A stretch of 64,000 nucleotides of DNA from Armatimonadota bacterium. GTDB taxonomy: Bacteria > Armatimonadota > SYMT01. This document shows, piece after piece, positions 2,532-50,488 of the stretch. The notes under the pieces are model-generated. The model was not told where the DNA came from and made no database searches. It worked only from the letters and a program-made list of their open reading frames with translations. The stretch lies in contig JAWLHY010000003.1 of assembly GCA_041690135.1 (NCBI GenBank), forward strand, positions 800,001 through 864,000, written 5' to 3'. Positions within the stretch are counted from its first letter, which is position 1. The number at the start of each line of letters is the position of its first letter. Made by a program: the position numbers and the translations under genes.

Positions 2532-3368
2532 ATGATCCGCCTGGAACGAACACGCACCCAAGCGGCGATCTCCGCGGCATTCCGGGGAGAGAAGCGCATT
2601 CTCAAGGCCCTTTCCCTGTTGGTCGAGGCCGGGGCGGAGCGGAAGTTCGACTCCGGTTACTGGAAGGGCGCGAAGAAGCAGCTCAAAAAGGAGTCGTTCG
2701 GAAAGTGCGCTTACTGCGAGGCCCCCACGGACGCGGTCGCGCACGGTGATGTGGAGCATTTCCGGCCGAAGAGCGTTTACTGGTGGCTGGCCTACTGCTA
2801 CGACAACTATCTCTTCTCCTGCCAGATCTGCAACCAGACCTTCAAGAGCGACCACTTTCCCCTGCGGGAAGGCGGTGCGGCGATGCCGGAACCCGGCCTG
2901 CCGCTCGGGGCGGATGACGCGGGAAAGCGGGAGTTCGTCCGCCGCTTCGCGCCCGACCCCCTGGATGAAGCAGAAGGCCAGCCCTGGGTGGAGTTCGCTA
3001 CCCGTTGTTCCGACGAGGGGTGTTTGCTGCTCAATCCCTATACGGACGACCCGGAGAGCCATTTTGCCTGGGAAGCGGACGAAGTACTCCGCGAGGTGGC
3101 CCTGCGCCCCGCCCGGTCCGAGGCGGACCCGTTCTTCCAGGCAGCCGTCCAGTTCTACGGCCTGAACCGTCCCGAGTTGCTGGCTGAGCGGTGGAAAACG
3201 TACCGCATGCTATCCACCCTCCGCAAGACCTTCGCGGCCGAGGAGCTCAACGCAGAACTGCGAACCGCCATCAGCGCGGAGATCCGGCAAATGATGGCCG
3301 CGGAAGAACGGTTTGCCGGTATGTGCCGGTACTTCGTGCGCCAGGTCTGGGCGCTGCCTCTGGAATGA
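2532..3368 (+). CDS. HNH endonuclease (PtuB/TIGR02646-like)
   Basis: CAYCE...DVEHFRPKS...NYLFSCQICNQTFK and LLNPY motifs; 13 bp after the ATPase. Confidence 0.85.
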   Translation: MIRLERTRTQAAISAAFRGEKRILKALSLLVEAGAERKFDSGYWKGAKKQLKKESFGKCAYCEAPTDAVAHGDVEHFRPKSVYWWLAYCYDNYLFSCQICNQTFKSDHFPLREGGAAMPEPGLPLGADDAGKREFVRRFAPDPLDEAEGQPWVEFATRCSDEGCLLLNPYTDDPESHFAWEADEVLREVALRPARSEADPFFQAAVQFYGLNRPELLAERWKTYRMLSTLRKTFAAEELNAELRTAISAEIRQMMAAEERFAGMCRYFVRQVWALPLE

Positions 3369-3476: not shown

Positions 3477-4196
3477 ATGCTTTCACGCCGCCGACTGCTG
3501 ATCCTCGCTGCCGCTGCGGCCGCTCTGATTGTGGGAGGGAACCTGCCCGTGCAGGCCAAGCGCACCCCGCCGCCCACCGTGGCGCCCGTCACCGTGGAGG
3601 GCGTGGAATATCGAGTTGCCTACGAGCGGTTCTCGGAGGGGGAGCGCCCGGCCGGGCTGCGGGCGTACCTGCTGGCGACGAAGCCCGGAACGTACACGGA
3701 GCTCTGGAAGACCCGCCTCTATGAGGTACGCTACCAGGGCAACCTCGAGACCGACGTTCAGGACGACTACGTGAAGTCCCTCTCGCGGGAACTCCCGGGC
3801 CTGCTCGCGCTGACGGAAGAGAAACAGGCTTACGTGGTAAACCTCGCCTCACGCGCCGTCAAGCCGTTGCCGCCCGGGAATGGATTGTTCAACTTGCTCG
3901 AAGAGGGTCGAGATCCGGGGCCGGGGAAACGCTTCACGGACGCCCGGGGAGTGCAACGCGACTGCCGGCTCCATCAGATCGCCCTGAAGGAAGACGCGGT
4001 CGGCATCGTGTTCGGCCTCGTGAGCTTCCCGCCGGACGTCTTCCGTGCGATGGTCGAGAAGTTCCCCAACGCTGCCACGGTCAACTACGGCGGCTGTATC
4101 CCCGGTCCCAGCCCGTGGGCGGTGGTGCGCTACTGCCCACGGTGTCGAGAGGCCCAGGAAGCCTGGCTCAAGGAGCGCAACGGGGCCAGGCCCTGA
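3477..4196 (+). CDS. Exported hypothetical protein with Tat-like signal and C-terminal CxxC
   Basis: GGAG before ATG; MLSRRRLLILAAAAAAL signal; GGC...YCPRC near the C-terminus. Confidence 0.65.
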   Translation: MLSRRRLLILAAAAAALIVGGNLPVQAKRTPPPTVAPVTVEGVEYRVAYERFSEGERPAGLRAYLLATKPGTYTELWKTRLYEVRYQGNLETDVQDDYVKSLSRELPGLLALTEEKQAYVVNLASRAVKPLPPGNGLFNLLEEGRDPGPGKRFTDARGVQRDCRLHQIALKEDAVGIVFGLVSFPPDVFRAMVEKFPNAATVNYGGCIPGPSPWAVVRYCPRCREAQEAWLKERNGARP

Positions 4197-4375
4197 TGGG
4201 ATGAAGATAACGATGAGGATGAGGATAAGGATAAAGAGGACTGGCGTTGAAGCCGGTCCTCTTTTCGTTCCGGCGCACCCCACCCTTTCAGGGTGTCTCT
4301 GTGGGTTCTAATCGTAGAAGGGATAAAACCGCAGTGGCAGGGTAGGTTCGGGATAGACAACTCAATTACAGTCCA

Positions 4376-5182: not shown

Positions 5183-5514
5183 GGCAGCTACAAATGCCAC
5201 CTCGCACCTCCCGAAATCCCGACCGAGTACCAACTCGCAGTGATTATACCCGTTTGCGCCTCCCCGGTCGTCCGTGTGTCTAGCAGGGATGTTGGCCAGT
5301 TCCAGGTGCTGCCGGTCCAGGGATTGACCATGTATGCTCCCGAGATTCGCGCGCTCTCGGCGGAGCGGCGGCTGGAGATCCGCGAAGACCGCTAAAACTC
5401 CGCGGGTCCCTTGGGACCACTGCCCGCGACTTCCTACAGATCCACGTGTCAAAAGAGGTAACCGGCAGGCAGGATGGAACCAGAATCGAAGAGATGTCCC
5501 GGAGGAGAGTGTCC

Positions 5515-6978
5515 ATGAACTTCAGGCTGGAACAGGCGAAGGCGATCACCCGACGGACCTTTTTCGGGCAGTCCGGAATGGGCCTGGGTGCGCTGGCGTT
5601 GGGTGCGCTGGTCCAGCGCGAAGGCCATGCCGCGGGTGCGCCCCAACGCCCAGGGGCCGGGGCCCAACGCCACCTCCAGCCGCACCACCGGCCGCGCGCC
5701 AAGTCGGTCATCTACCTCCACATGTCCGGGGCGCCGCCGACCCTGGACCTGTTCGACTACAAGCCCAAGCTGGTCGAGCTCCACATGCAGTCCTGCCCGC
5801 AGTCGCTGTTGGAGGGCCAGCGGTTCGCGTTCATCAAGGGCGTCCCCAAGATGCTGGGCACGCCGCACAAGTTCCAGCGCTACGGCCAGAGCGGGGCCGA
5901 GATCTCCGACCTCCTGCCGCACACCGCTTCCATCGCGGACGACATCGCCATCGTGCGCTCGATGGTGACGGACCAGTTCAACCACGCCCCCGCGGAGCTG
6001 TTCCTCTACACCGGCTCGGCGCGGGCCGGCAACGCCTCCATGGGCTCCTGGCTCACCTACGGGCTGGGGAGCGAGAACCAGGATCTTCCGGGCTTCGTGG
6101 TCCTGCTCTCCGGCGGCACCGACCCCACCGGCGGCAAGAGCCTCTGGAGCAGCGGTTTCCTGCCGTCCGTGCACCAGGGGGTCCAGTGCCGTTCGGCGGG
6201 CGAGCCGATCCTGTTCCTGAACAACCCGGCGGGAATGACCCGCGAGAACCGCCGCCGGAGCCTGGACGCGTTGAACCGGCTGAACGAGCTGGAAGCCCGG
6301 CAGTTCGGAGATCCCGAGACGCTCACCCGCATCCAGCAGTACGAGCTGGCCTACCGGATGCAGATCGCCGTGCCCGAGGTGATGGACATCTCGAAGGAGC
6401 CTAAGCAGATCCAGGAGATGTACGGCGCCAAACCGGGCGAGGCGACGTTCGCCAACAACTGCCTCCTGGCCCGTCGCCTGGTGGAGAAGGGGGTCCGGTA
6501 CGTCCAGCTTTACGACTGGGGCTGGGATATGCACGGCACCGCCCCGGACAACGACCTGGTGACCGGCCTGCCCCGCAAGTGCAAGGACGTGGACCAGGCC
6601 GCCGCCGCCCTGGTAAAAGACCTGAAGCAGCGGGGCCTGCTGGAGGACACCCTGGTGGTGTGGGGCGGCGAGTTCGGACGGACCCCCATGAACGAGGCCC
6701 GCGGCGGCTCCAAGTACCTCGGCCGCGACCACCATCCCCACTGCTTCAGCCTCTGGATGGCCGGCGGCGGCGTCAAGCCGGGCATCACCCACGGCGAGAC
6801 GGACGAGCTGGGCTACGGCGTGGTGAAGGAGAAGGTCACCATCCGCGACCTGCAGGCGACGATCCTCCATCTGATGGGCCTGGACCCCTACCACACCAGC
6901 TACCGTTACCAGGGCCTGGACCAGCGCCTGATCGGCCCCACGAACGAGGGGGTGATACAGACGGCGCTGCTCCGGTAG
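5515..6978 (+). CDS. DUF1501 family protein (sulfatase-like, Tat-like signal)
   Basis: TRRTFF; AKSVIYLHMSGAP..LDLFDYKP; GWDMH; WGGEFGRTP; GRDHHP. Confidence 0.93.
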   Translation: MNFRLEQAKAITRRTFFGQSGMGLGALALGALVQREGHAAGAPQRPGAGAQRHLQPHHRPRAKSVIYLHMSGAPPTLDLFDYKPKLVELHMQSCPQSLLEGQRFAFIKGVPKMLGTPHKFQRYGQSGAEISDLLPHTASIADDIAIVRSMVTDQFNHAPAELFLYTGSARAGNASMGSWLTYGLGSENQDLPGFVVLLSGGTDPTGGKSLWSSGFLPSVHQGVQCRSAGEPILFLNNPAGMTRENRRRSLDALNRLNELEARQFGDPETLTRIQQYELAYRMQIAVPEVMDISKEPKQIQEMYGAKPGEATFANNCLLARRLVEKGVRYVQLYDWGWDMHGTAPDNDLVTGLPRKCKDVDQAAAALVKDLKQRGLLEDTLVVWGGEFGRTPMNEARGGSKYLGRDHHPHCFSLWMAGGGVKPGITHGETDELGYGVVKEKVTIRDLQATILHLMGLDPYHTSYRYQGLDQRLIGPTNEGVIQTALLR

Positions 6979-22575: not shown

Positions 22576-22773
22576 GTCTCGCGCCAAGCCGCCAAGCCGC
22601 CAAGCAGTAAAGGGGACCTGTCTCTCGCAAAGACGCAAAGAACGCAAAGGAGAAGGGGGGAGCCGTAGTTGGTACGGCTCCCCCCTTCTCCTTGAGCAGA
22701 ACCTGGTGCACAGCCGCCTCGCCTCAAGTTTCTTCCAATTCCCTCTTGGCGGCTTGGCGGCTTGGCGCGAGAC
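22576..22773. repeat. MITE-like unit with 29-bp perfect terminal inverted repeats and an internal hairpin
   Basis: GTCTCGCGCCAAGCCGCCAAGCCGCCAAG at 22576 and its reverse complement ending at 22773; inner AAGGAGAAGGGGGGAGCCGTA/TACGGCTCCCCCCTTCTCCTT stem. Confidence 0.8.
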
Positions 22774-22786
22774 ATCGTCCGGGGGG

Positions 22787-24253
22787 TTAGCCGAAGATGC
22801 CCTCCACGATCTTGGCCTGGATCAGCTCGCGGGGCTGGTTCAGGTGGTTGTAGACGATGGTGTCGGGACGGATCCCGAGGGAGTAGTAGACGGAAGCCAG
22901 GATCTCGGTGGGGTGGACCGGGTCCTCGGCGGGGCTGGAGGCGGTGGCGTCGGACTTGCCGTACTGGACGCCGCGCTTGACCCCCGCGCCCGCCACCAGG
23001 CCGGTGTAGCAGTAGGGCCAGTGGTCCCGACCGTCCGGGGCGTTGCCGTTGCCGGAGGTGGAGACGCCCATCCGCGGGGAGCGGCCGAACTCGCCGATGG
23101 CGACGACCATGGTCTCCTCCAGCAGGCCGCGCTGGTGCAGGTCTTCCAGCAGGGCGGAGAGGGCGCTGTCCAGCTTGGGGCAATGGAGATCCTTCAGCGG
23201 GCCGAAGTTGGCGGCGTGGGTGTCCCAGGCGGTGGTCTTCGGGTCGCCGTTGGCCACGGAAGGCCAGTTCACTTCCACGAAGCGGGTGCCGGCCTCGACC
23301 AGGCGGCGCGCCAGCAGGACGCTCTGGCCGAAGGTATGGCGGCCGTAGCGGTCGCGGACCTTGTCCGGCTCCTGGGTGAGATCGAACGCCTTGCGCGCCC
23401 GGCCGGAGAGGATAAGGTCGTACGCCTGCTCGTAGTACTTGTTGAGGGCGTACTTCTCGACGGCCTTCTGGACTTCGGGCATCTGGGCGTCCAGCGACTT
23501 GCGCAGGCCCGCGCGCCGCTCCAGCCGGTTCTCGGTGACCTCCGGGCGGAGCTTCAGGTCGTCGATCTTGATGTGGTTCATCTTGTCCTGGTCGGTATCG
23601 CCGCCCGGCGGGAACAGGTAGTAGGGATCGTACGCCTTGCCGAGGAACCCGGCGGTGCCGCCCTTGTTGACCACGCCCGACTCCTGCATGGGGCGGGGCA
23701 GCATCACGAACGGCAGCATCGGCTCGGACGGCGGCTTGAGCCGCGCGATCTGCGAGCCCCCGTGCGGGAAGTCGGTGGGGGAGGGCGGATCGAGCTGTCC
23801 GGACGGGGCGACCTTGTCCGGGGTGTAACCGGTGACCATCTGGTACATGGCGGCCGTGTGGTTGAAGAGGCCGGCCGGCGTGTAGCTGACGGAGCGGATG
23901 AGGGTGGCCTTATCGAGTTGCTGGGCCAGCAGCGGCATGTGCTCGCCCACGAACGTGCCGGGGATCTTCGTGGGGATCGGCTTGAACTGGCCGCGGATGT
24001 TCTCCGGCGCGTCCGGCTTGGGGTCCCAGATATCGATGTGGCTGGGGCCGCCCTGGAGGAAGATGAAGATGACGCTCTTCGCCTTCCCGAACGCCGCCGC
24101 GGACCCGCCCGCCGCTTCCACCGCTTGAGCGGAGCGGAGCGCGAGCACGTTGGGGAGGGAGAGCCCCATGAGGCTGATGCCCCCGATGCGGAGCAGGTCG
24201 CGCCGGGTGAAGCTGTCGCACAGCCTTCCTTTATTTCCCTGGATTGTCAGCAT
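22787..24253 (-). CDS. DUF1501 family protein
   Basis: TRRDLL; [16 protein letters not shown]; WDTH; GEFGRSP; GRDHWP. Confidence 0.93.
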
Positions 24254-24387: not shown

Positions 24388-27111
24388 CTAACGGTTGAAC
24401 AGGAAGGCCGGGCTGTTGATGAGGGCCCACATGAGGTCCTGGGCGCCTTCGCTCCGGTCTTTCGCGGTTTGGATGTGCTTGACGGCCGTGTCCAGCTCCT
24501 TCGCCGTGGGGAGCCGGCAGAAGACGGCCAAGTAGATCTCTTCGACGAGCTTCCGGTTCTCCGGAACCTCTTTCACCAGGCGCGCCACCCGGCCGTTGGG
24601 GTCGGCGATGGCCGTGGCGATGGTGTCGCCGTTCATCAGGTTGAGCGCCTGGGCCAGGCTGACTTCGCTGGAGCGCTCGCACTCGCAGGGGCTTTCGCGT
24701 GACGGCCGGCCGAACAGGTCGAGGAAGTTGGTGTTGGCCACGCGGGTATCGGGAAGCTGCTGCGCCCGGGTGCCGGAGGGCACGCCGGGGTACTTGGGGT
24801 AGCTGCCCGTAGCGTGGCTGATGGCGTCCATGAGCTGTTCCGCGGTGAGCCGCCGGGCCACCTGGTGGGAGAAGTTGATCTGGTCGTCCTCGTTCCACCG
24901 GTTGGCGGCGATGCTCGCCTGGTAGGTGCGGGAGCTCACGATGGTGCGCATCAGGTGGCGCAGGTCGAACCCGCTCCGGATGAAGTCCGCCGTGAGGGCA
25001 TCGAGGAGCGGCGCGTTGCTGGGCGGGTTGCTGTTGCGGATGTCATCGACCGGGTCGATGATGCCACGCCCCAGGAAGTAGCTCCAGATGCGGTTGGACC
25101 AGGACTTCGCGAAGAAGGGGTTTTGGGCCGCGGTGAGCCACTGGGCCAGCGCCTGCCGGCGGGTGGCGGGCGTGGCGCCGCCCTGGAGAGCCGCCACCGT
25201 GACAGGGAACTCCGGAGCGACCACCGTCCCCTTGCGCGGGTGGGTCACCTCTCCGGTATTGCGGTCGTAGATCGACTCGTCGCCGCTGGGGCCCGGCTTG
25301 AACCCGACCTGCGCGAAGTAGGCGCCGAGCTGGTAGTACTGGGCCTGCGTCCAGCGCTCGAAGGGGTGGTCGTGGCACTTGTTGCAGGAGAACCGCACCC
25401 CCAGGAAGAGCTGCGTGACGTTCTCCGTGGCGGTGGAGGTGTCGCGGATGACGCGGAAGTAGTTGCTGGCCGGGTTCTCGAAGGCGCTGCCCGTGGAGGT
25501 GAGCAACTCGCGGACGAACTGGTCGAGCGGCCGGTTCTGGGCGATGGAAGCGTGGATCCAGGCCCGGAAGGCGTGCATCCCCTTATCGCCCAGGTACTTG
25601 CGGTTCACCTGGAGCAGGTCGGCGAACTTGTAGGTCCAGTGGTCGTCGAACTCGGGGGAGCGGAGGAGGCGGTCGATGAGGCGTGCACGGGCTTTGACGG
25701 CGATGGTTTGCCGGGAGTTGGAACCTCGCACCGGGGCAGTGTAATGCGTATTGCGTATTGCGTAATTCGAACCCATGGGTTCAGATGTTGCTGCGGTTAA
25801 CCGAGCGGTCTGCTCCCCCGGTCCCTGCGCCCTTGCGCCCTTGCGTTCTGCCAAACCGTGCTCGCTCTGTAACCTACTGCCCCCTGCCCCCTGCTCCCTG
25901 CCCCCTTGCGCTTTGGCGACAGAAACCGCCCGCAGTTCTTCCGCACACTCGGATAGGAACTGGCGTGTTTGCTGGGGCGTGGGGAGGGTGCCGGTGAGAT
26001 CGAGGGTGACGCGGCGGAGGAAGTCGGCGTCGGAGCAGTAGGGGGCGGGGAGGGCCTTGATCCGCTTCAGTTTGAGATCGACCAGCTCGTCGACGAAGTT
26101 CTGCTGGGGCGCGGCGACCCACTTCCAGCCGGTGCGGTCGCCCAGGACGGTGAACTCGTTGGTGGCGAACTGCCCCTCGTAGGAGACCTGGACGGCGGTC
26201 TCCCCGCGGCGGACCGTGGTGACTCGCCCATGGTCGTCCACCGTGGCGACCTCGGGGACACTGCTGGTGTAGCGGGCGTCGCGGGTGACGTCGCGGGTGG
26301 TACCGTCGTCGTAGTGGGCGATGACGACCAGGTTCTGCTTCTGGCCGGGGAGCGGGATGGTGGGGTGCTTCGGCAGGACCTCGAGGCGCGCGACGCGGCT
26401 GACTTTCTCCACGTCGGACTGGACGCCCTCCGCGATCCACTGGCGGATAACGTGATAGTAGCGGCTGCCGCGGTCGAACACGAGCCCGCCCTGGTGGGGC
26501 ACGTCCTGCACCGGCTTCTGGAGCATCAGGCTGGAGTCGGGCGCGGCCCGGTTGAAGCGGCGGCCGCTGACGTCATCGACGAGCGCCTGGTAATCGAACT
26601 CCAGGTCGTAGCCGCGCAGGGAGAGCTTGAACCCGTTCTTCCCCGCCTGGGCGCCGTGGCAGGTGCCCTGGTTGCAGCCGGTTTTGGCGAGCACCGGCGA
26701 CACGTCGCGCACGAAGCTAATGGGCGGCGCGGCCATGCTCTTCACCGTGAGGGGCAGCGCGATCGTCTTTCCGGCCGCCCGGATCGTAACGCTTCCCTTC
26801 CCCACCTTCTGCGGCACCAGGTAACCGCCGGGCGCCGCCTGCACCAGCCCACCCACCGGACGGAAGACCGCGCTGCCCGTGAGGTCGACCGTCCCGCCGG
26901 ACTTCGTAATGCCGGTAACGAGCACTCGCCGGATATCGCGCTTGTTGGCCAGGGTCAGCGTCGCGGGCAGCAACTGCAGCCGCACCACGGCCCGGCCGGG
27001 ATCCGCCTTCCGGACCGCCGGTTTCGCCGCGGGGGCTCGCTTTGGGGCGGGCGCGGCTCCGGCCGGCAGGGCGGTTCCGGCGGCGAGGAGGAGGGCTAGG
27101 GAGTATTTCAT
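24388..27111 (-). CDS. DUF1549/DUF1553 (PSD1) protein with Ig-like domains, carrying a ~80-aa in-frame insertion
   Basis: GCNQGTCHG, FKLSLRG, DADFLRRVTLDLTGTLPT, FSCNKCHDHPFERWTQ, IIDPVDD, CECER. Confidence 0.92.
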   Translation of the reverse strand: MKYSLALLLAAGTALPAGAAPAPKRAPAAKPAVRKADPGRAVVRLQLLPATLTLANKRDIRRVLVTGITKSGGTVDLTGSAVFRPVGGLVQAAPGGYLVPQKVGKGSVTIRAAGKTIALPLTVKSMAAPPISFVRDVSPVLAKTGCNQGTCHGAQAGKNGFKLSLRGYDLEFDYQALVDDVSGRRFNRAAPDSSLMLQKPVQDVPHQGGLVFDRGSRYYHVIRQWIAEGVQSDVEKVSRVARLEVLPKHPTIPLPGQKQNLVVIAHYDDGTTRDVTRDARYTSSVPEVATVDDHGRVTTVRRGETAVQVSYEGQFATNEFTVLGDRTGWKWVAAPQQNFVDELVDLKLKRIKALPAPYCSDADFLRRVTLDLTGTLPTPQQTRQFLSECAEELRAVSVAKAQGGREQGAGGSRLQSEHGLAERKGARAQGPGEQTARLTAATSEPMGSNYAIRNTHYTAPVRGSNSRQTIAVKARARLIDRLLRSPEFDDHWTYKFADLLQVNRKYLGDKGMHAFRAWIHASIAQNRPLDQFVRELLTSTGSAFENPASNYFRVIRDTSTATENVTQLFLGVRFSCNKCHDHPFERWTQAQYYQLGAYFAQVGFKPGPSGDESIYDRNTGEVTHPRKGTVVAPEFPVTVAALQGGATPATRRQALAQWLTAAQNPFFAKSWSNRIWSYFLGRGIIDPVDDIRNSNPPSNAPLLDALTADFIRSGFDLRHLMRTIVSSRTYQASIAANRWNEDDQINFSHQVARRLTAEQLMDAISHATGSYPKYPGVPSGTRAQQLPDTRVANTNFLDLFGRPSRESPCECERSSEVSLAQALNLMNGDTIATAIADPNGRVARLVKEVPENRKLVEEIYLAVFCRLPTAKELDTAVKHIQTAKDRSEGAQDLMWALINSPAFLFNR
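25700..25950 (-). repeat. In-frame repeat-derived insertion, copy 2
   Basis: Encodes LAERKGARAQG...RLTAATSEPMGSNYAIRNTHY, versus LAGRKGAEAQG...RLTAAASDPRGSGYAKRNTQY in copy 1; boundaries approximate. Confidence 0.8.
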
Positions 27112-27190
27112 GGGCGTTGGGCGTTGGGCGTTGGGCGTTGGGTATTCGGGTGTTCGGGTGTTCGGGTTTTCAGGGGTTCAGGTATTCGGG
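27112..27190. repeat. Heptamer (GGGCGTT x4) and octamer (GGGTGTTC-like) tandem repeats
   Basis: Visible directly upstream of the PSD1 gene start. Confidence 0.8.
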
Positions 27191-27591
27191 AGTTGGTGAA
27201 TGGAAGTAGTCTCGGATGGCGGCACTGTAGGGAATGTGACGCCGCTCCATTCCGCCGCTCGCGAGGTTGATCTTGCTTGGCCAACTCGTGCGCACTATGG
27301 CTTCCAGTCCCGTAGAAGGTGCTCGCTCTCCCGGCCATTCGGCCCCCCGGCCTGGGCTTCGCTGGATTAGGATGAAGATTGGGATAAGGATAAGGACGTT
27401 CTTGGGCTGTTACAGCTTCCGCTTATCAGTTCGGAGTGCCCTCTTCGGCGCTTTCGGCCCCCCGGCCCCCAATCCTGGGGGAGTCTGTTCAACGTTACGG
27501 GTTCTCAACGCTATGTGTAGAGTTCGTCTCCAGTTGTTTCAGCGATCAGGATGTGGATTACGATTAGAGTCGGGGCAAGGAGGCGGCGGGT

Positions 27592-30080: not shown

Positions 30081-30142
30081 GGCGGTCGGATTTGGTGCGT
30101 GGAGCAAGGATTGTGTACTGGGCTTCCGAGGGGCGTGGGGAT

Positions 30143-30551
30143 CCATGTCGGCGGCCGCTCACCTTGACGGCACGCAACGTGGTGCGGGTTCAAGGACCCG
30201 GCTCGGTTTGTCCGTGTGACCTCATCCCCAACCCCTTCTCCGACACAGAGAAGGGGCTATCGGCGTGAACCCAGTACGACGCCGTACTTTCCGCAGAAGC
30301 CACCGGTCACTTTGGCCGACATTCTGATCGCCCACCAAGCCCCCACACGACCGTGATCGTCGAGCCCGTGAAGACCAGAGCCATCCCTGTACTGCGCGAG
30401 GGCTTCCCCCTTCCCTGCGTCGGAGAAGTTTACGCCCCGCGGGAGTGGGGGACCGAGGGGGATGAGGTTACCGCGGTCACCGCAGCCGTTAGTATTGTCG
30501 CACTCCAAGCCTTGCAGCACCCTGGTAGACCGCTGGATGCGTTGGCCACGG
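30143..30551. repeat. Giant-spacer cassette A1
   Basis: REP-like arms CCCTTCTCCGACACAGAGAAGGGG and CCCCCTTCCCTGCGTCGGAGAAGTTTACGCCCCG; followed by a CRISPR repeat at 30552-30580. Confidence 0.8.
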
Positions 30552-30580
30552 CGGTCCACCCCCACGTGCGTGGGGAGTAA

Positions 30581-30901
30581 TGCTTCGTCTCACCCGTGGG
30601 GGCGCAGCTACGTTGCTCCGTCCTCTTGCCCCAGGGTGCTACCGTGGGGTCGCCCCCAGCCCTTGCTTTGGGCCACCGCCCTCCCGCGTGTTAAGCCTCC
30701 GCTCGGCCTTTCACGCTCCCTGCCCGCCAGCGGGCGCCCGTCGCTAGCGGCCGGCTCCGGCGTGCAGCCCAAGACCTGGGCTCCGCGCTGCGGACGGGCG
30801 CTTGGCCTAGTCGTGGCGTGGACGGGCGGCGACCCGACAGCTTCGAGCTATCCCCCCGTCCGGGGAGATCACATGGGCCCGGCGCTGCCGGGCTACGGTT
30901 T
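30581..30901. repeat. Giant-spacer cassette B1
   Basis: Core CTACCGTGGGGTCGCCCCCAGCC...GAGCTATCCCCCCGTCCGGGGAGATCAC...GCCCGGCGCTGCCGGGCT, between repeats at 30552 and 30902. Confidence 0.85.
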
Positions 30902-30930
30902 CCGTTCACCCCCATGTGCGTGGGGACCCA

Positions 30931-31333
30931 TTTCCGTGGTCGTTCACCTTGAGGGCACGCAACGGGGTGCGGGTTCAAGGTCTCGATCCGGTTTGGCCGT
31001 GTGACCTCACCCCAACCCCTCTCCGACGCAGAGAGGGGCTATCGGTGTGTGCCCAAGCCGACGGTGCATTTTCCAGAGATGCCGTCGGCTACGACTGCCG
31101 ACGTCCTGAACTTCCACCAAGCCGCAGCGCAACCGTGACCGTGACCGTGGAGTCTGCGAAGATCAACACCAGTCCTCTACTGCGCGAGGGCTTCCCCCTT
31201 CTCTGCGTCGGAGAAGTTTACGCCCCGCGAGGGTGGGGGACCGAGGGGGATGAGGTTACCGCGGTCACCGCACTGGTGGACGATGACGTGCCAGCGCCTT
31301 CAGAATCCGGGTGGAACGCTGGTTGTCGTGCCG
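30931..31333. repeat. Giant-spacer cassette A2
   Basis: Closely similar to 48020-48461; between degenerate repeats at 30902 and 31334. Confidence 0.85.
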
Positions 31334-31362
31334 CAGTTCATCCCCACGTACTTGGGGACAGT

Positions 31363-31683
31363 TCGCGACTCCCGGGTTGAAGCGTAGGCATAGCCACTTT
31401 AGGTTGGTCCGCTCCCACTACCACTATCATGGGGTCGCCCCCAGCCCTTGCCTTGGGCCGCCGCCCTCACGCGTGTTGGGCCTGCGCTCGCCCTTTCACG
31501 CGCCACCCCTCGGGGGTCCCCGGCGCTAACGGGCGGCTTCGGCGTGCAGCCCAGGACCTGGGCTCCGTGCTGCGACCGGGCACTGGAACCACGCCGGGCG
31601 TGGACGGGCGGCGACCCGGCGTCTTCGAGCTATCCCCCCGTCCGGGGAGATCACAAGGGCCCGGCGTTGCCGGGCTTTGGTTT
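31363..31683. repeat. Giant-spacer cassette B2
   Basis: Same B core; between degenerate repeats at 31334 and 31684. Confidence 0.85.
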
Positions 31684-34457
31684 CCGTCCATCCCCACGTG
31701 CGTGGGGACAACTGGGCTCTGCTGGAAGCGTTCGCTGAGACGCCCGGTCCACCGCCACGTGCGTGGGGAAAACATCGGCTGCCGAGATGATGATCTCCAT
31801 GTGTGCGGTCCACCCCCACGTGCGTGGGGATAAGAGCGCCTTCGGGAGTTGGCGCGCTCCGGCGAGCGGTTCACCCCCACGTGCGTGGGGACAAGGCCGT
31901 TGCGGATAAGGCCCGTGTCCAGGCCCACGGTTCACCCCCACGTGCGTGGGGACAAGGACGGTAACACCGAGGGTGAGGCGTACGACGACGGTTCACCCCC
32001 ACGTGCGTGGGGACAAGGCTGTGAAGATCATCAATGGGCGGGGTGGTGGCGGTTCACCCCCACGTGCGTGGGGACAAGCGGTCTATCTGGTTCACAAGGT
32101 TAAGGAGTCACGGTTCACCCCCACGTGCGTGGGGACAAGCGGGGCGTCGCTCGGGATCACCACCGGGCCCGCGGTTCACCCCCACGTGCGTGGGGACAAG
32201 AAAACTGCCGGGCGGTAAAGCTCCGAGCCCGCCGGTTCACCCCCACGTGCGTGGGGACAAGAGGGCGCGCTCCTGCTCCGGAGTGAGCCGACCCGGTTCA
32301 CCCCCACGTGCGTGGGGACAAGCTCACCCAGCTCCTCAACCGGCCCAATCCCCACGGTTCACCCCCACGTGCGTGGGGACAAGTCAGGATCGGCGCCTTG
32401 TGCTCGCCCTGGAACCGGTTCACCCCCACGTGCGTGGGGACAAGGACTCGTCCAGGTTCGGCACGATCCGGCTGAACGGTTCACCCCCACGTGCGTGGGG
32501 ACAAGCCCCTACGCGAACGCCTGACCTTCGCCCGCGTCGGTTCACCCCCACGTGCGTGGGGACAAGCGCGCCGAGGAGCACCCCTCGCAGGCTCGCCACG
32601 GTTCACCCCCACGTGCGTGGGGACAAGGAGGTGCTGGACGCGATGCGGGAGTATGCGGCCGGTTCACCCCCACGTGCGTGGGGACAAGGAGGACCTCCGC
32701 CTCCGGAAGAACTGCGTCCACGGTTCACCCCCACGTGCGTGGGGACAAGTGCGGTAGTGGAGTGCGTGCGCCGGGGTGGGGCGGTTCACCCCCACGTGCG
32801 TGGGGACAAGACCACCCCCCCTATTGTCCGACAATAGGGCCTCGGTTCACCCCCACGTGCGTGGGGACAAGTCATCTCGTTCCTTCAACAGCCGCTCGGA
32901 GCGCGGTTCACCCCCACGTGCGTGGGGACAAGGAGGAACTTCTCCGCCTGGGAGACGGCCTCCGCGGTTCACCCCCACGTGCGTGGGGACAAGGGTCTCG
33001 GCCCCGTCTTCCGGGTCGCCGTCCCCGGTTCACCCCCACGTGCGTGGGGACAAGTGTGGTGAGTGGTTGCAATCGCGCGGATGGGGCGGTTCACCCCCAC
33101 GTGCGTGGGGACAAGTGCCGGTTGGCATCGGAGAGGGACCGTCCGTCCGGTTCACCCCCACGTGCGTGGGGACAAGAACCCGTCGCCGGGCTCGGTGTTG
33201 CCCAGGTCCGGTTCACCCCCACGTGCGTGGGGACAAGTTTGCACCAGCCGCCTTCCAGTCTTGGCCCAACGGTTCACCCCCACGTGCGTGGGGACAAGCC
33301 TCGTGTCCGTCCGGGCAGGCCTGGAATTATCGGTTCACCCCCACGTGCGTGGGGACAAGTAATAGTGCTTTCGGCAACGTCTCCGTTAATCAGGTTCACC
33401 CCCACGTGCGTGGGGACAAGTGCTCGAAGTTGAGGACCCCCAGGTCCACCGTCGGTTCACCCCCACGTGCGTGGGGACAAGCTATCTCCCGTTCAAAAGG
33501 AACGGCCGGCCCACGGTTCACCCCCACGTGCGTGGGGACAAGGTCCGGTATCAACGCCTGCGCGAGGACCCCACCGGTTCACCCCCACGTGCGTGGGGAC
33601 AAGATCCCATCCAGTGCTGTCTGCACCCGTCGGGCCGGTTCACCCCCACGTGCGTGGGGACAAGCCGGCGGCATTCCTCGGCGGCGAACGTTTCGGCGGT
33701 TCACCCCCACGTGCGTGGGGACAAGCGGCAAGACCGGCACATCAGTGCCTTACCGGTCGGTTCACCCCCACGTGCGTGGGGACAAGATCCTGAACGAAAA
33801 GGCGTTGCGGACCCGCGCCGGTTCACCCCCACGTGCGTGGGGACAAGCCGTTTGATGTTGCCCAGCAGGTTCACCCCGGCGGTTCACCCCCACGTGCGTG
33901 GGGACAAGTTGATCTTGCGGTCGCGGATCTCGGCTTCCCACGGTTCACCCCCACGTGCGTGGGGACAAGCCGTTTGATGTTGCCCAGCAGGTTCACCCCG
34001 GCGGTTCACCCCCACGTGCGTGGGGACAAGAACTGCCGCGCTTTAAGGATGATCTCCTTCTTCGGTTCACCCCCACGTGCGTGGGGACAAGAGTCGAAGA
34101 ACGGGGTCTTGGTGCCCTGCTCCCGGTTCACCCCCACGTGCGTGGGGACAAGAACTGCCGCGCTTTAAGGATGATCTCCTTCTTCGGTTCACCCCCACGT
34201 GCGTGGGGACAAGAGTCGAAGAACGGGGTCTTGGTGCCCTGCTCCCGGTTCACCCCCACGTGCGTGGGGACAAGAACTGCCGCGCTTTAAGGATGATCTC
34301 CTTCTTCGGTTCACCCCCACGTGCGTGGGGACAAGGATCAGCAGCGCCGCAATCGCCGTCACCTTCGCGGTTCACCCCCACGTGCGTGGGGACAAGCTCT
34401 GGGGCCTGAAGCGCAGGGGGCGCCGTGTCGGTTCACCCCCACGTGCGTGGGGACAAG
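31684..34457 (-). CRISPR. Type I-E CRISPR array 1, 46 repeats and 45 spacers of 32 bp
   Basis: 29-bp repeat CTTGTCCCCACGCACGTGGGGGTGAACCG (minus strand), exact 61-bp period; degenerate copies at the left end, leader at the right. Confidence 0.98.
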
Positions 34458-34508
34458 AGCAAACTTAGCGTTTGCTGGAACTGGCCAATGGGCGCTGCGG
34501 TGTAGGAA

Positions 34509-36172: not shown

Positions 36173-36258
36173 TGTAGCTATCCCTTTACCGAACGGGTTG
36201 GCCCGCGGAATTCGCGGAAAGCGGGCCTTGGTTCACCCCCACGGTGCGTGGGGATTAT

Positions 36259-36563
36259 TGCGTCCACTCATTCGTGGTGGCGAAGCTACCATGGTCCTAC
36301 TCATTGCCTGGAGGTGCTACCGTGGGGTCGCCCCCAGCCCTTGCCTTGGGCCGCCGCCCTCCCGCGGAATCAGCCTCCGCTCGGCCTTTCACGCTCGTCG
36401 CTCGCTAGCGGCCGGCTCCGGCGTGCTCACCAGGCCCTGTGTTCCGCGCCGCTGACGGGCGCTGCAACCATTCCGGGCGTAGACGGGCGGCGCCCCGGCG
36501 TCTTCGAGCTATCCCCCCGTCCGGGGAGATCACAAGGGCCCGGCTCTGCCGGGCTCTGGTTGC
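36259..36563. repeat. Giant-spacer cassette B3
   Basis: B core, with a flank homologous to B1; between degenerate repeats at 36229 and 36564. Confidence 0.85.
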
Positions 36564-36592
36564 CGGGCACCCCCCACATGCGTGGGGACAAG

Positions 36593-36918
36593 GTATCCGG
36601 CCCGACCTTTCGCGACTCCCGGGTTGAGGAGTTGGCGAAGCTTCGTGGATGTTGTGCTGTTTCCCACTACCACTACCGTGGGGTCGCCCCCAGCCCTTGC
36701 ATTGGGCCGCCACCCTCCCGCGGAAGAAGCCTCCGCTCGGCCTTTCACGCTCGTCCCTCGCTAGCGGCCGGCTCCGGCGTGCAGCCCAAGACCTGGGCGC
36801 CGCGCTGCTGCCGGGCACTGGAACCAGTCGATGCGTGGACGGGCGGCGCCCCGGCGTCTTCGAGCTATCCCCCCGTCCGGGGAGATCACATAGGCCCGGC
36901 GCTGCCGGGCTTCGTTTT
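36593..36918. repeat. Giant-spacer cassette B4
   Basis: B core, with flank TTCGCGACTCCCGGGTTGA...CCCACTACCACTA shared with B2. Confidence 0.85.
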
Positions 36919-36984
36919 CCGTCCCCCCCACGTGCGTGGGGGGGACGGAAAACGAAGCCCGCCCTCGGTCTCCAGGTCCGGCCG

Positions 36985-38907
36985 CGGTCCACCCCCACGT
37001 GCGTGGGGAAAACTCGACCCGCTTCGCGCCGGCCAGCTCGCTCGTCGGTCCACCCCCACGTGCGTGGGGAAAACGCCCGCCATGGCTACCGCATAGTAGG
37101 GAGCATCGGTCCACCCCCACGTGCGTGGGGAAAACGCGCACACGCTCTCCCGGAATGCCCGCGACAACGGTCCACCCCCACGTGCGTGGGGAAAACTGGG
37201 CAGCCTTATCGCCCCCTTTCTCTAGCTGCGGTCCACCCCCACGTGCGTGGGGAAAACTTCTGCTTCCTGCTGGCGCTTCCGCTTCTCGGCTGGTCCACCC
37301 CCACGTGCGTGGGGAAAACTTCGCCAGAGAGGCGGGCCTGGGCCTGACGGGCGGTCCACCCCCACGTGCGTGGGGAAAACGCGGCGACGTCGTTCTCTTC
37401 CTTCGCGGCCTTCGGTCCACCCCCACGTGTGTGGGGAAAACCCGGGGGGCTGGTCGGTGTAGACCTTCACCAGCGGTCCACCCCCACGTGCGTGGGGAAA
37501 ACACCACCTGTGGGCGCGGGGGACCGAACCGCGACGGTCCACCCCCACGTGCGTGGGGAAAACTAGGGCACCGTGGAGGCCGGCCACTCCTTCGCCGGTC
37601 CACCCCCACGTGCGTGGGGAAAACGTCAAACGGCGCAAGGCATTGTTTCGCCATGTAGGTCCACCCCCACGTGCGTGGGGAAAACGCCCGCCCCCGCGCT
37701 AGTGGACGGCGGGGCTGCGGTCCACCCCCACGTGCGTGGGGAAAACGTGGTCGGCGCTGGCGCGCAGCACCCGCCGGGCGGTCCACCCCCACGTGCGTGG
37801 GGAAAACGCTGCTTCCTCGATGGTCTCATACAGCCCCAGCGGTCCACCCCCACGTGCGTGGGGAAAACGGCGCGGGCGAGGGCGGCGCGGGCACGCTGTC
37901 CGGTCCACCCCCACGTGCGTGGGGAAAACAGCAACATAGGACATCAGTAGCTCCCCTGGAACGGTCCACCCCCACGTGCGTGGGGAAAACTGGACTGCTG
38001 AAAGAGGACGGGACGCTCTGGGCGGTCCACCCCCACGTGCGTGGGGAAAACGCCAGCCGCGCCCACCTCCCGCCAGCCCGCCGCCGGTCCACCCCCACGT
38101 GCGTGGGGAAAACTCGTCTACTACTACGCTCAGCACCCGCTCCAGCGGTCCACCCCCACGTGCGTGGGGAAAACATGAGCCCTGCCCTGTGGCGGGCGGC
38201 GGATACCGGTCCACCCCCACGTGCGTGGGGAAAACTCATGACCTCTTCCGGGTCCTGCGGCATGCCGCGGTCCACCCCCACGTGCGTGGGGAAAACATCC
38301 CCACTTTCCAAGGATGTGGAGTTTGGGGCGGTCCACCCCCACGTGCGTGGGGAAAACACATCCGCCTCACTGATCGTCCGTCCGCGGACCGGTCCACCCC
38401 CACGTGCGTGGGGAAAACGTGACGCTGGACGCGGATGCCTGGGAAGTGGACGGTCCACCCCCACGTGCGTGGGGAAAACACGATAGCCTCACCTTCGCTC
38501 ATATCCTCTTCCGGTCCACCCCCACGTGCGTGGGGAAAACGCCGGTAAGCCCGCGACAGCGGTTCATACTGGCCGGTCCACCCCCACGTGCGTGGGGAAA
38601 ACGTCCGGCCGAATTCAGCGCCCATCGGCATCTCCGGTCCACCCCCACGTGCGTGGGGAAAACAACCGCGCCCACACTTCCGCCGCCACCTTCGACGGTC
38701 CACCCCCACGTGCGTGGGGAAAACCGCCCAGCGCTAGATAGGCGGCCACGATGAGGCGGTCCACCCCCACGTGCGTGGGGAAAACCTGGTACCACTTGTC
38801 CGGGTTCTCGCTCTCCTCGGTCCACCCCCACGTGCGTGGGGAAAACTCCAGAACTGCCCCCGTGGTACTTAACGAACGCGGTCCACCCCCACGTGCGTGG
38901 GGAAAAC
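36985..38907 (-). CRISPR. Type I-E CRISPR array 2, 32 repeats, located between cas6e and cas1
   Basis: Repeat GTTTTCCCCACGCACGTGGGGGTGGACCG (minus strand); 32-33 bp spacers. Confidence 0.98.
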
Positions 38908-38948
38908 AGCAAACTTAGATTAGCGCTTGCATGGAGGTTCGTGTGCTC

Positions 38949-39617
38949 TCAGTTTGCGGGGGCGAGGGAGAGGAGCCCGAAGCCGAAGCCTTTGGCGGTG
39001 CCGATACCGGCGCGGAGGGTGGCGAGGAAGAGCTCCGGATTCCGGACTTCTAGCAGGCCTTCGAATTCGACGCAGGCGTAGGGAACGCTTTTCCCCGCGG
39101 ACTTGCGGACAAGAACTACCCCGCGGTCGGTGACGGTGAAGGTGGTGGGCGCAAACCCGCCTTGCTCTCCTTTGCGGTGCAGCCAGCTCCGTTGGGCGAC
39201 CTCGGTTTCCTGGGGGTCGTCGAAGACGAGTGCCCGGCGCGCGCCGTCTTTGGGTTTGCCGGTGCGTGCATCGACCGCGTGCCCGCCGGGCTCCCGGCGA
39301 GTGGGGTTGGCGGTCAGGCGAAAGCGCAGGCTTTGCCCGGCGGAGAACTTCAGGTCGAGCGCTTTCACCTGTGGGGTGACGGCCAGGTAACGACCGCTGT
39401 TCTCCAGGCGGCGCCAATCCGGCTCGGCCAGAGATTGGACCAGCACTCGCGGCCCCCGCCGGCTTTCCTCGGCTCGGAACAGGCAGCGTGCTTCCTGATA
39501 GGCCTGTCCGTCCGGAAAGCCGGTGGAAAGCGTCCGATGCAGTTGATACACGTCGCGCAACTCGGACCGTACCCGGGGAGAGGCGGGGTTCAACTCCAAC
39601 AGCGTGAGGTAGATCAT
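38949..39617 (-). CDS. cas6e: Cas6e/Cse3 crRNA processing endonuclease
   Basis: YQLHRTL, FRLTANPT, GIGTAKGFGFGLLSL Gly-loop. Confidence 0.96.
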   Translation of the reverse strand: MIYLTLLELNPASPRVRSELRDVYQLHRTLSTGFPDGQAYQEARCLFRAEESRRGPRVLVQSLAEPDWRRLENSGRYLAVTPQVKALDLKFSAGQSLRFRLTANPTRREPGGHAVDARTGKPKDGARRALVFDDPQETEVAQRSWLHRKGEQGGFAPTTFTVTDRGVVLVRKSAGKSVPYACVEFEGLLEVRNPELFLATLRAGIGTAKGFGFGLLSLAPAN

Positions 39618-47754: not shown

Positions 47755-48019
47755 TGAGGAAAGGATAGCGAAGGCAGGGTGCGGTGAGGGTGCACTCTGA
47801 AAAGTCTTCCGTGAGCGTGGCCGGGGAAGGGGATTGCCCGCGGAACACGCGAGCTTGCCCGTATGGGATGGACGCGGAAGGTGGACGGAAAAGGGATGGA
47901 AGGAATTGTTCCGAGACGAGCGAGGGTGGGCTTAATGACTTCTTAAGCACTGTGCTGCGTTTGGCTCACCCCATATGCGCGCGAATCTTGAATCCCTCAA
48001 TGCGGTGCTAACGGAGCTC

Positions 48020-48461
48020 AGTGATCGTTCACCCTGACTGCGCACGGCGTGGTGCGAACACAAAAGCTTGATCCGGTTTGGCCGTGTAACCTCATCCCCG
48101 CCACCCAGAGGGTGCCCCCCACCCAAAGGGTGCCCCCCACCCAAAGGGTGCCCGGTCCGACGCAGAGAGGGGCTATCGGTGTGTGCCCAATCCGGCGGTG
48201 CAATTTCCAGAGATGCCGTCGGCTACGACTGCCGACGTCCTGAACTTCCACCAAGCCTCAGCGCAACCGTGACCGTGGAGTCTGCGAAGACCAACACCAT
48301 TCCTCTACTGCGCGAGGGCTTCCCCCTTCTCTGCGTCGGAGAAGTTTACGCCCCGCGGGGGTGGGGGACCGAGGGGGATGAGGTTACTACGGGCGCCGCA
48401 GCCGTGGATGATAATGGACCAGCGCCTTGTAGAATCCAGGTGGAACGCTGGATGTCGTGTT
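48020..48461. repeat. Giant-spacer cassette A3, with an internal 18-bp x3 tandem repeat
   Basis: Closely similar to A2; CCCCCCACCCAAAGGGTG units at about 48097-48150; followed by a repeat at 48462. Confidence 0.85.
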
Positions 48462-48490
48462 CGGTCCACCCCCACGTGCGTGGGTACCCA

Positions 48491-48894
48491 TTTCCGTGGC
48501 CGTTCACCTCGACGGCACACAACGGGGTGCGGATTACAAGGTCTCGGTCCGGTTTGGCCGTGGAATCTCACCCCAACCCCTCTCCGACGCAGAGAGGGGC
48601 TATCGGCTCGGACACAGTCCGGCGGTACACACACCGGAGATACCGTGAGCTACGACCGCCGAAGTTCTGATCGCCCATCGCTTCGCCCATTCGCGAGCGT
48701 GACCACGCCTCCTGCAAAAGACAAGATTCACTCCGTTCTGAACACGGGCTTCCCCCTTCTCTGTGTCGGAGAAGTTTACGCCCCGCGGGGGTGGGGGATT
48801 GAGGGGGATGAGGTTACCACGGCCACCGAAGCCATTAGCGGTGTCGCACTCCAAGCCTTCCCGACCCCTGGTAAACCGCTGGTTGTCGTGTCGG
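48491..48894. repeat. Giant-spacer cassette A4
   Basis: Shares TGTCGCACTCCAAGCCTT and TTCTGATCGCCCA with A1; between repeats at 48462 and 48895. Confidence 0.85.
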
Positions 48895-50155: not shown

Positions 50156-50488
50156 AGCAAACTTAGCGTTTGCAGGTTCCGGCGGGCGGAAGCGGCGGGA
50201 GAGTAGTCGAAATCTCCTTCGGCAGCGGCCAGCCCGGCACCTGCCGGGAGAAATAGTTGTCGTCCGCCCGCAGAACCAGGCCTTCCAGGAACTTGAATCC
50301 TACCGGAGCACCCGCGAACCGCCGCGCTCGGACCTTCTTCCCCTTCTTCTGTTCCCCTTCTTCCGTTCCCCTTCTTCCGCCCACCTCTTCCGCTGCCCTT
50401 CTAACGCCCCCCCTTCTTCCGTTCCCTTTTCCGCGCCTTTCCGCGTGTTCCGCGGGCAATAACCCGTCCCCCTCTTCCGCAGTCGTGT

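Follow-up and report, generated by a model that had tools for sequence, protein, structure and literature searches.

How can the same piece of DNA come to lie in frame within two protein-coding genes, at sites that are not homologous? This question is raised by a 64,000-nucleotide stretch from an Armatimonadota bacterium (C3:800001-864000 of a 9.1-Mb assembly with a G+C content of 0.65; hereafter the window, to which all coordinates without a contig name refer). Two genes of the window, both encoding DUF1549/DUF1553 proteins, contain an element of about 180 bases, and we call these examples copy A and copy B after their host genes. The evidence favours the view that the element, which looks like translated passenger DNA, is not a functional protein module. 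On balance, we lean toward describing it as a lineage-specific mosaic DNA repeat that occupies two permissive turns of DUF1549/DUF1553 proteins, that is translated there as a disordered loop, and that would be carried along as passenger or selfish DNA whose spread we infer.

Two related inserts at non-homologous sites

Host gene B (24388-27111, minus strand) encodes a protein of 907 amino acids, P0001, in which a Pfam search finds Big_2, PSCyt2 (DUF1549) and PSD1 (DUF1553) domains, with the PSD1 (PF07587) and PSCyt2 (PF07583) matches above the Pfam gathering score at 160.6 and 135.2 bits, respectively. Copy B (25690-25953, minus strand) contributes 88 in-frame residues to the PSCyt2/DUF1549 region of this protein, between L386 and R475 (PTPQQTRQFL...RARLIDRLL), which confirms an original prediction, made from the letters alone, that an insert separates these two peptides at 25700-25950. 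The insert amounts to 79 residues above the 9-residue loop of homologs, and it breaks the Pfam PSCyt2 match in two, the second stretch beginning at profile position 54. The corresponding PSD1 site of P0001 (site A) is empty.

Host gene A enters the window as a 5'-open reading frame whose 3' part lies at 2-1099 on the plus strand. The entire open reading frame (ORF; C3:797296-801096, 1267 codons) encodes PSCyt1, PSCyt2, F5/8 type C and PSD1 domains, and its PSCyt2 and PSD1 matches exceed the gathering score at 315.4 and 315.2 bits. Copy A (71-349, plus strand) contributes 93 in-frame residues (LLDWLATAF SST...GWDSK, with the 5' anchor LLDWLATAFSST) after PSD1 profile position 62-63, where it interrupts the PSD1/DUF1553 match between profile positions 62 and 65. 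The anchors of site A span 100 residues in this protein, versus a minimal 7-residue loop in homologs. A full copy of the element occupies 81-271 of the insert (plus strand; nhmmer model positions 4-182) and includes an extra CCGGGTGCCCTCCGGCCGA segment, and both a repeat search and nhmmer place a second, tandem 3' module at 277-346 (plus strand; model positions 113-182). The CCGGGTGCCCTCCGGCCGA variant segment recurs at C2:482884-483038 and at the intergenic position C11:13735-13831.

Because copy B splits PSCyt2 and copy A splits PSD1, the two sites are non-homologous, as had been proposed. The relationship between the copies themselves is clear. In a genome-sized search space, blastn aligns them over 153 nucleotides at 73.2% identity (E 1.5e-14) and over a further 66 nucleotides at 84.8% (E 5.4e-14), and the repeat search pairs 278-343 with 25741-25806 (66 nucleotides, 85% complementary). 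These alignments are identical when DUST masking is applied, and 200 shuffles of copy B score at most 26.5 bits, versus 75-77 bits for the real matches. Chance or low-complexity similarity is thus ruled out, and the similarity survives the masking that might have abolished it. The three peptide blocks that had been noticed in common (including QGGREQGA/QGSRGQGA and LAERKGARAQG/LAGRKGAEAQG) are present in both translations, and the two DNA strings quoted with them occur in the window. As in these two proteins, the inserts split Pfam matches and halve BLAST alignments of their hosts.

A mosaic of heptanucleotide repeats around a unique core

Degenerate heptanucleotide repeats surround a unique core of 120 nucleotides, and together they make the element a mosaic. 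A GCAGGGG-type tract lies on the 5' side of the core and an ACGCAAT-type tract on the 3' side, often followed by a CCCCAAC-type tract, and every whole copy has G-rich heptamers 5' and ACGCAAT heptamers 3'. In copy B, all on the minus strand, the core maps to 25741-25860 (120 nucleotides, 40 residues; HGLAERKG...AIRNTHY) and its alignment with the cores of 10 other copies is gap-free. The degenerate G-rich tract of copy B (GCAGGGG/GCAAGGG type, 25878-25912) lies 5' of the core and encodes QGGREQGAGG; the aligned copies show a tract of like type in this position. An ACGCAAT/ACGCATT tract (25743-25766) forms the 3' end of the core and encodes YAIRNTHY. The translated peptides have a period of seven residues because three heptamers make 21 nucleotides, or seven codons. 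For example, ACGCAAT yields YAIRNTQ, GCAGGGG yields QGAGGRG, CCTTCAT yields SSFILHP and CCCCAAC yields PQPPTPN, and a further 7-residue block in site-A inserts reads QLSIVNS. Between the heptamer blocks are unique segments, such as those encoding YGLAERRGA and ACCGCAGCAGCTTCTGATCCCCGGGGTTCG.

Modules of the element are duplicated in some genes (copy A has two 3' modules, and C3:986534-989362 has three 5' modules), and modules have been lost and swapped between genes. The heptamer tracts within copies comprise only 2-4 degenerate units. The length of the core is invariant, with no indel in 120 nucleotides across 11 of 11 aligned copies, and its 40 residues include 8 that are invariant and 7 nearly so, again with no gaps.

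Heptanucleotide arrays are common in this genome. Tandem Repeats Finder reports 6,975 arrays, of which 893 have period 7 before de-duplication; the leading units are AACCTTC (91), AATACGC (48) and AATGCGT (47), and AATACGC/AATGCGT together account for 95 of the 893. De-duplication leaves 659 period-7 arrays. PSD1 ORFs account for 2.6% of the genome and contain 88 of these arrays, an enrichment of about five-fold, and 326 are intergenic. The corresponding PSD1-ORF share is about 1-3% for arrays of period 6, 8, 9 and 10. Moreover, paralogs that lack the core at the PSCyt2 site still hold the G-rich tract.

Several other heptamer tracts are present in the window. A (GGGCGTT)4 array at 27113-27142 immediately precedes the ATG of host gene B, an AACGCCC-type tract at 5642-5671 falls in the 5' part of a DUF1501 ORF (5446-6975), before the start of the Pfam domain at residue 85, and (GGATAAG)-type tracts are found at 4194-4237 and 27365-27396. 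These examples show that the heptamer repeats of the genome also occur near gene starts.

Distribution of the element in the genome

An iterated nhmmer search started from copy B yields 101 matches at E < 1e-3 in its own genome, with 40 in PSD1-family ORFs, 20 in other gene calls, 5 partly in gene calls and 36 in intergenic DNA. All 40 in PSD1-family ORFs are in the sense direction. Among the 26 matches of at least 55 bits, which are near full length, 25 reside in PSD1 ORFs, and all 26 are co-oriented with the ORFs of 583-1515 codons that contain them. The agreement in orientation and reading frame first noticed between copies A and B extends to the strong copies in general, whose codon phase agrees at three anchors in 18 of 18, 17 of 18 and 18 of 18 cases. 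The suspected bias toward the DUF1549/DUF1553 family is therefore real.

The genome encodes 77 PSD1-family ORFs, as identified with our own PSD1 hidden Markov model (HMM) beside the Pfam search, and 24 of them carry the core, at two sites only and always in the sense direction. A profile of the 40-residue core finds it whole (positions 1-40 or 2-40) in 15 ORFs of this genome at E <= 1.8e-15, 11 of them at site A in PSD1 and four at site B, which is the PSCyt2 turn FLxD-PRP-SxxKR. Seven more genes carry partial cores at site A, bringing to 18 the genes with all or part of the core there, and a fifth gene has the 3' module alone at the PSCyt2 site. All site-A carriers fall in the LLD[YWF]LA branch of the family. 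Outside PSD1-family genes the 3' module occurs, but the whole core does not.

When the 77 PSD1 domains are aligned with hmmalign, a single insertion point dominates, after match state 63. Here 41 genes have 10-129 extra residues, one has six and 35 have none. Each of the 42 inserts (6-129 residues) is part of one stop-free ORF that continues into the conserved downstream part of the domain, and none breaks the frame. This preservation of the frame in 42 of 42 cases shows, so far as reading frames can tell, that the insert is translated.

Copies outside the family

Partial copies are not confined to PSD1 genes. The nucleotide block GGTTC-N3-TTACGCA, which marks the 3' module and leads into further heptamers, has 42 occurrences in the genome. 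PSD1 genes account for 18 of these, other gene calls for 7 and intergenic positions for 17. Eleven of the intergenic blocks are co-oriented with the next gene and six are convergent, a split that is not significant. Some intergenic 3' modules immediately precede genes; others adjoin 5S rRNA at four contig ends or belong to a repeat-dense region at C11:12-15 kb, where one copy shares with copy A the variant containing CCGGGTGCCCTC. A GGTTCC-N-TTACGCA module precedes 5S rRNA-like sequence by a few bases and recurs in a further conserved spacer (C14:146-293, C15:147-295, C9:365780-365926 and C4:509633-509682), and these four contig ends are probably collapsed rRNA operons.

All 20 matches in other gene calls have the same orientation as the gene. 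We discount this as a signal, as the Pfam domain mostly starts well downstream and our own ORF caller favours the stop-free strand. Most of these matches precede the first Pfam domain and are thus probably upstream of the true gene start. Two cases outside the PSD1 family appear to be internal, and both involve partial modules: one is in a loop of a NicO-type ORF and the other in a linker of C3:998007-999671. The latter ORF combines transketolase pyrimidine-binding, transketolase C-terminal and lipoyl domains, and its linker of about 100 residues includes two tandem 5' modules (YG[LF]AERKGA-like).

The insert has a history separate from that of its hosts

If the inserts had descended with their genes, then similar hosts should carry similar inserts. 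Instead, core sequences are equally similar whatever the site, with pairwise identities of 0.705 (A-A), 0.703 (A-B) and 0.712 (B-B), versus 0.565, 0.464 and 0.587 for the PSD1 domains of the same pairs and 0.44-0.51 for their third codon positions. Insert identity is unrelated to host identity (r=0.06). On a FastTree phylogeny of the 77 PSD1 domains, the 24 carriers require 20 parsimony changes, compared with a mean of 20.6 and a minimum of 15 when labels are shuffled, and the nearest paralog of several carriers is without any insert.

Homologs from other organisms, the closest of which carry the label Armatimonadota or Chthonomonadaceae in their sources, lead to the same picture. Among proteins 56-73% identical to P0001, the loop at site B has 9 residues in 84 of 87, while in the remaining three it holds 13, 20 or 41 unrelated residues. 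In homologs of host A, site A has the minimal 7 residues in 14 of 44 and 13-66 residues of other low-complexity sequence in 30 of 44. Taken together, these comparisons of genes show the insert to be, by all indications, a derived state decoupled from the history of the host gene, and they support the view that the element entered non-homologous sites, and repeatedly. Other homologs carry unrelated low-complexity inserts at sites A and B, and thus both sites are general hot spots for such insertions, while this element appears specific to this genome. Some of the host A homologs have PSD1 loops with an 8-residue period (FNDSTIQR, LNDSTIQR), and others resemble SSFILHP (IPSSFAPRRA); these observations come from P0159, P0161, P0167, P0175, P0214 and P0238. 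The FNDSTIQR/LNDSTIQR-type peptides would be translated 8-nucleotide tandem repeats.

Wider searches indicate that the element is lineage-specific. A DNA search of 30 relatives, six of them of the same family, gave no match to the element at E <= 0.001. Within same-family genomes, the core profile has no match in one (G002) and only weak matches, mostly to the heptamer end, in another of a different genus (G005; best E 0.023). The 3' motif has three single matches in 185,579 species genomes, and two diagnostic patterns that match 7 and 8 copies within this genome are absent from metagenome contigs; from both collections, records of this genome or its near kin may have been left out. Public sequencing runs share at best 0.11 of words with the sequence, and contigs assembled from four of them mostly represent conserved parts of other organisms. 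At the locus, one contig of 248 nucleotides matches 25514-25759 with 14 differences and another of 151 nucleotides matches 25576-25726 with none, and no contig from the four runs covers 25781-25965. G005 has 73 PSD1 matches from 56 candidates, and a second genome, G001, has 57 from 57. This count suggests that a good number of the G005 PSD1 genes may also be split by inserts.

Conservation probably acts on nucleotides rather than on a peptide

The kept frame invites the idea of a functional peptide. However, in 14 of 18 strong copies stops interrupt all sense frames but one, so that a surviving insertion in the sense direction must use that one frame. At least one antisense frame is open in 15 of 18. 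Pairwise identity is nearly the same at the three codon positions (0.713/0.714/0.684; difference -0.029, permutation standard deviation 0.044, P=0.25), and the 64 most conserved columns are spread 22/21/21 across them. G+C content at the three positions is 0.65/0.65/0.62 in the inserts versus 0.68/0.49/0.86 in the host domain, with the third-position value lower in the insert than in the domain in 37 of 37 genes.

No relatives of the peptide have been encountered. Neither insert peptide matches a Pfam family at E <= 1, and in a search of 5.8 billion proteins, none of 57 candidates passed except the query itself. Against 1.84 billion cluster representatives, the core profile matches six proteins at E <= 0.001, none of which has the core. 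One is a fungal low-complexity protein, and the other five are ORFs of 146-198 residues composed of QYAIRNTQYA repeats on contigs of 527-1846 nucleotides. In these five (P0242-P0246, from public metagenome contigs), the QYAIRNTQYA units are spaced 8-12 residues apart and represent interspersed ACGCAAT arrays of other organisms.

Two further coding or processing possibilities were considered and rejected. Many copies contain an antisense ORF of 80-99 codons, whose conservation is flat in every phase and which we take to be a by-product of composition. An intein or self-splicing intron is disfavoured by the lack of Pfam and Rfam matches at E <= 1 and by the frame kept in all copies, since a spliced intron would not need a kept frame.

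Predicted structure of protein and RNA

An AlphaFold2 model of P0001 was built from 88 sequences (pLDDT 80.6, pTM 0.81). Residues 411-463, between helices 379-408 and 465-483, have pLDDT values below 50, and the empty site A of the same protein is a short turn between helices 700-712 and 717-725. Mapped in this way, the insert at site B is a low-confidence loop between helices and site A is an inter-helix turn. The insert is accordingly modelled as a disordered loop, rich in G, A, S, R and P, at a permissive helix-to-helix turn.

We also considered whether the element might act as a structured RNA or ribozyme, and this candidate was rejected. The RNAalifold energy of 18 aligned copies is -3.3, versus -2.9 +/- 2.1 for column shuffles, and single sequences have a mean z-score of +0.6. 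The antisense strand gives -8.3. An Rfam scan of 25500-26100 returned no matches at E <= 1.

How the element might spread

The reading that we favour holds that a copy survives only if it preserves the host frame and contains no stop, which would leave one sense frame. Short-tract recombination or template switching would carry the core from one loop to another, with the repeat tracts on either side as anchors. Copying of this kind would maintain site, orientation and frame without selection on the peptide, and it would also reassort modules. In addition, the element would have had to pass illegitimately between the two non-homologous sites at least once. Long-tract gene conversion through the conserved flanks was rejected, as carrier flanks are hardly raised in identity and host codons are not homogenised. 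Short-tract, repeat-anchored copying is the mechanism that we infer.

A dedicated enzyme may be involved. The Y1 (HUH) transposase family PF01797 has nine matches in the genome, three of them strong (C11:209659-210000, C1:627841-628185 and C2:54557-54895) and six weaker. No target-site duplication is evident between filled and empty paralog sites, for which there is no orthologous empty DNA site to serve as a comparison.

Several observations weigh against regarding the element as spreading passenger DNA. No terminal inverted repeats or target-site duplications are seen, and no enzyme is linked to the element. Third-position identity in 60-nucleotide flanks is 0.50-0.55 for carrier pairs and 0.45-0.53 for non-carrier pairs, versus 0.68-0.71 for the insert. 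The PSD1 tree rests on 226 columns, with support of at least 0.7 at 45 of 74 nodes, and the division into genic and intergenic copies uses our own crude gene caller. Finally, neutral passenger DNA leaves unexplained both the indel-free 120-nucleotide core of the 11 aligned copies and the unevenness of conservation among columns, whose standard deviation of 0.182 exceeds the expected 0.093 and the 99.9th percentile of 0.111. Uneven columns and an indel-free core therefore point to nucleotide-level constraint or recent copying, and it is likely, judging from the alignments, that the element has been subject to constraint on its nucleotide sequence or length, or has been copied recently.

Alternative explanations

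One way to account for nucleotide-level constraint is that the conserved blocks function as DNA, for instance as a binding or recombination signal that also serves in intergenic regions and is tolerated or even used within genes, perhaps as a hot spot that diversifies paralog loops. We consider this unlikely, even though it would explain why conservation is uneven along the element yet even over codon positions (22/21/21), why GGTTC-N3-TTACGCA is present 42 times, including 17 intergenic blocks, and adjoins 5S rRNA at four contig ends, and why the core has a constant length in all 11 aligned copies. However, the blocks have no known protein partner and lie at no fixed distance from gene starts, and the 11:6 orientation of intergenic blocks is not significant. 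The whole core is restricted to PSD1-family genes, and neither an RNA structure (by RNAalifold) nor an Rfam match at E <= 1 supports a signal. Contingency tracts, in which the gain or loss of single heptamers would switch paralogs on or off by phase variation, are a very improbable alternative. A unit length that is not a multiple of three, the roughly five-fold enrichment of heptamer arrays in the family compared with the fraction of the genome that it occupies, and the large size of a family whose members are predicted to be exported are all what such tracts would lead one to expect, but the tracts are short (2-4 units) and degenerate, and 0 of 42 insert-bearing genes are out of frame at the insert.

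The original prediction had named two possibilities, independent insertion with frame selection or a functional peptide module biased to this protein family. The first is essentially right. Carriers are scattered like shuffled labels, insert identity is unrelated to host identity and 84 of 87 homologs are insert-free, all of which speaks for independent insertion; frame selection also stands, in the trivial sense that stops leave one sense frame in 14 of 18 copies. The second is not supported, given flat codon-position conservation, a 3' module that is also intergenic, and no comparable protein among 1.84 billion representatives. In its fuller form, this alternative would have the likeness of the DNA arise from selection on a peptide serving as a flexible tether, docking motif or processing site, and we judge it quite improbable. 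It could draw on the single frame of strong copies (17-18 of 18), the gapless 40-residue core with 8 invariant and 7 nearly invariant residues, the confinement of the whole core to one family and two sites, and the PSD1 loop expanded in 30 of 44 homologs of other organisms. Against it, third codon positions are not relaxed and G+C content lacks codon periodicity, in 14 of 18 copies stops leave no other sense frame to use, and modules are freely duplicated, lost and swapped; the insert is missing from 84 of 87 host B homologs, the six profile matches include none with the core, and Pfam offers nothing at E <= 1. We find it scarcely credible that the insert is instead an old loop of an ancestral paralog, inherited by gene duplication with nothing moving. 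Duplication alone would preserve site, orientation and frame, and all site-A carriers do belong to the LLD[YWF]LA branch. Vertical inheritance is nevertheless contradicted by the decoupling of insert and host (insert identity of 0.70 exceeds 0.46-0.59 in host domains and 0.44-0.51 at host third positions, with no correlation), by carriers scattered like random labels with several nearest paralogs insert-free, and by a core that is also found at a second, non-homologous site, where host B homologs have no insert.

A bolder proposal, which we put forward tentatively and regard as doubtful, is that the element represents an undescribed kind of bacterial repeat, a tandem-repeat-anchored and translated cassette that copies itself from loop to loop among the members of a giant paralogous family, and that repeat-driven, in-frame loop expansion is a general and possibly exploited diversifier of exposed DUF1549/DUF1553 loops across several phyla. 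The PSD1 loop is expanded in 30 of 44 foreign homologs, in some with peptides that resemble translated 8-nucleotide repeats, such as FNDSTIQR, and therefore loop expansion may be general.

Other features of the window

A DUF1501 gene (22787-24253, minus strand; PF07394, E 2.9e-99) lies directly downstream of host gene B. DUF1501 genes are the usual partners of DUF1549/DUF1553 genes. Just downstream of this gene is a perfect 29-nucleotide inverted repeat (22576-22604 / 22745-22773) composed of GCCGCCAA-type tandem units, its arms separated by 140 nucleotides. Directly after host gene A are a gene for an AAA_21/AAA_15 (AbiEii-type) ATPase (1196-2518) and an ORF with a Cys/His-rich motif (2532-3368). 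The domain scan covered the first of these, and together they may constitute a two-gene defence module.

The window also contains three large arrays of clustered regularly interspaced short palindromic repeats (CRISPR) at 31684-34500, 36986-38950 and 48886-50200. They have a 29-nucleotide repeat, CGGTTCACCCCCACGTGCGTGGGGACAAG or a ...GGTCCAC...GAAAAC variant, at a spacing of 61 nucleotides, with more than 100 repeats in total. Degenerate repeated leader-like units are found near these arrays (30126-31700, 36237-36930 and 47996-48890), and a perfect 27-nucleotide hairpin (36906-36961) is present beside one of them.

Relation to known repeats and significance

The closest known analogue appears to be the Rickettsia palindromic elements (RPEs), which the review PMC10969869 describes as a kind of miniature inverted-repeat transposable element that inserts in frame into protein-coding genes, including unrelated metabolic genes. 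The two systems have in common a repeat of about 150 base pairs present in many copies per genome (here 101 nhmmer matches, 26 of them near full length), in-frame insertion that leaves the ORF open while adding a peptide, additional copies outside genes, and a preference for places where the fold tolerates insertion, which in our model is a disordered loop between helices. Unlike the palindromic RPEs so described, the present element has no hairpin or conserved structure (-3.3 vs -2.9 +/- 2.1), and unlike elements dispersed among unrelated genes, it has 25 of 26 strong matches in one paralogous family at two sites. It is also modular and built of heptanucleotide tandem repeats, and its host is not Rickettsia.

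Other repeat families, among them repetitive extragenic palindromes (PMC3733652), resemble the element in part. Short tandemly repeated repetitive (STRR) heptanucleotides of heterocyst-forming cyanobacteria were reportedly found by Vioque in 1997 to lie also inside the RNase P RNA gene. Like the heptamers described here, STRRs are genome-wide families of tandem heptanucleotides, mostly intergenic, that can be tolerated inside a functional gene. They belong to another phylum and have other units (STRR1-3), whereas in the present genome repeats and unique junctions form a recurring composite within protein-coding frames. Repetitive extragenic palindromes (REPs) are extragenic palindromes with GTAG/CGTC heads, and neither such palindromes nor such heads are seen in the element. 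On the other hand, as with REPs and bacterial interspersed mosaic elements (BIMEs), the element is a many-copy mosaic of short motifs with conserved junctions, and its genome encodes Y1 homologs. Contingency loci, for example those of Haemophilus influenzae (PMC2651432), are likewise characterized by tandem units with lengths that are not multiples of three, in ORFs of predicted exported, multi-copy families; unlike those loci, the tracts studied here are short and degenerate, and 42 of 42 are in frame. Literature searches on heptanucleotide tandem repeats with Planctomycetes, and on DUF1553 with DUF1549 and DUF1501, returned no description of inserts like these.

The colonisation of genes by in-frame repeats has been documented deeply mainly in Rickettsia. 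The case presented here involves a repeat that is non-palindromic and built of tandem repeats, in a free-living lineage with a large genome. The inserts also matter for annotation, because they split Pfam matches and halve BLAST alignments. With about two dozen carriers among 77 paralogs, and with close paralogs that differ in carriage, the family constitutes a natural series in which DNA of non-coding character becomes a protein loop. This series could inform both the origin of low-complexity inserts in bacterial proteins and the location of tolerant loops in the uncharacterised DUF1549 and DUF1553 domains.

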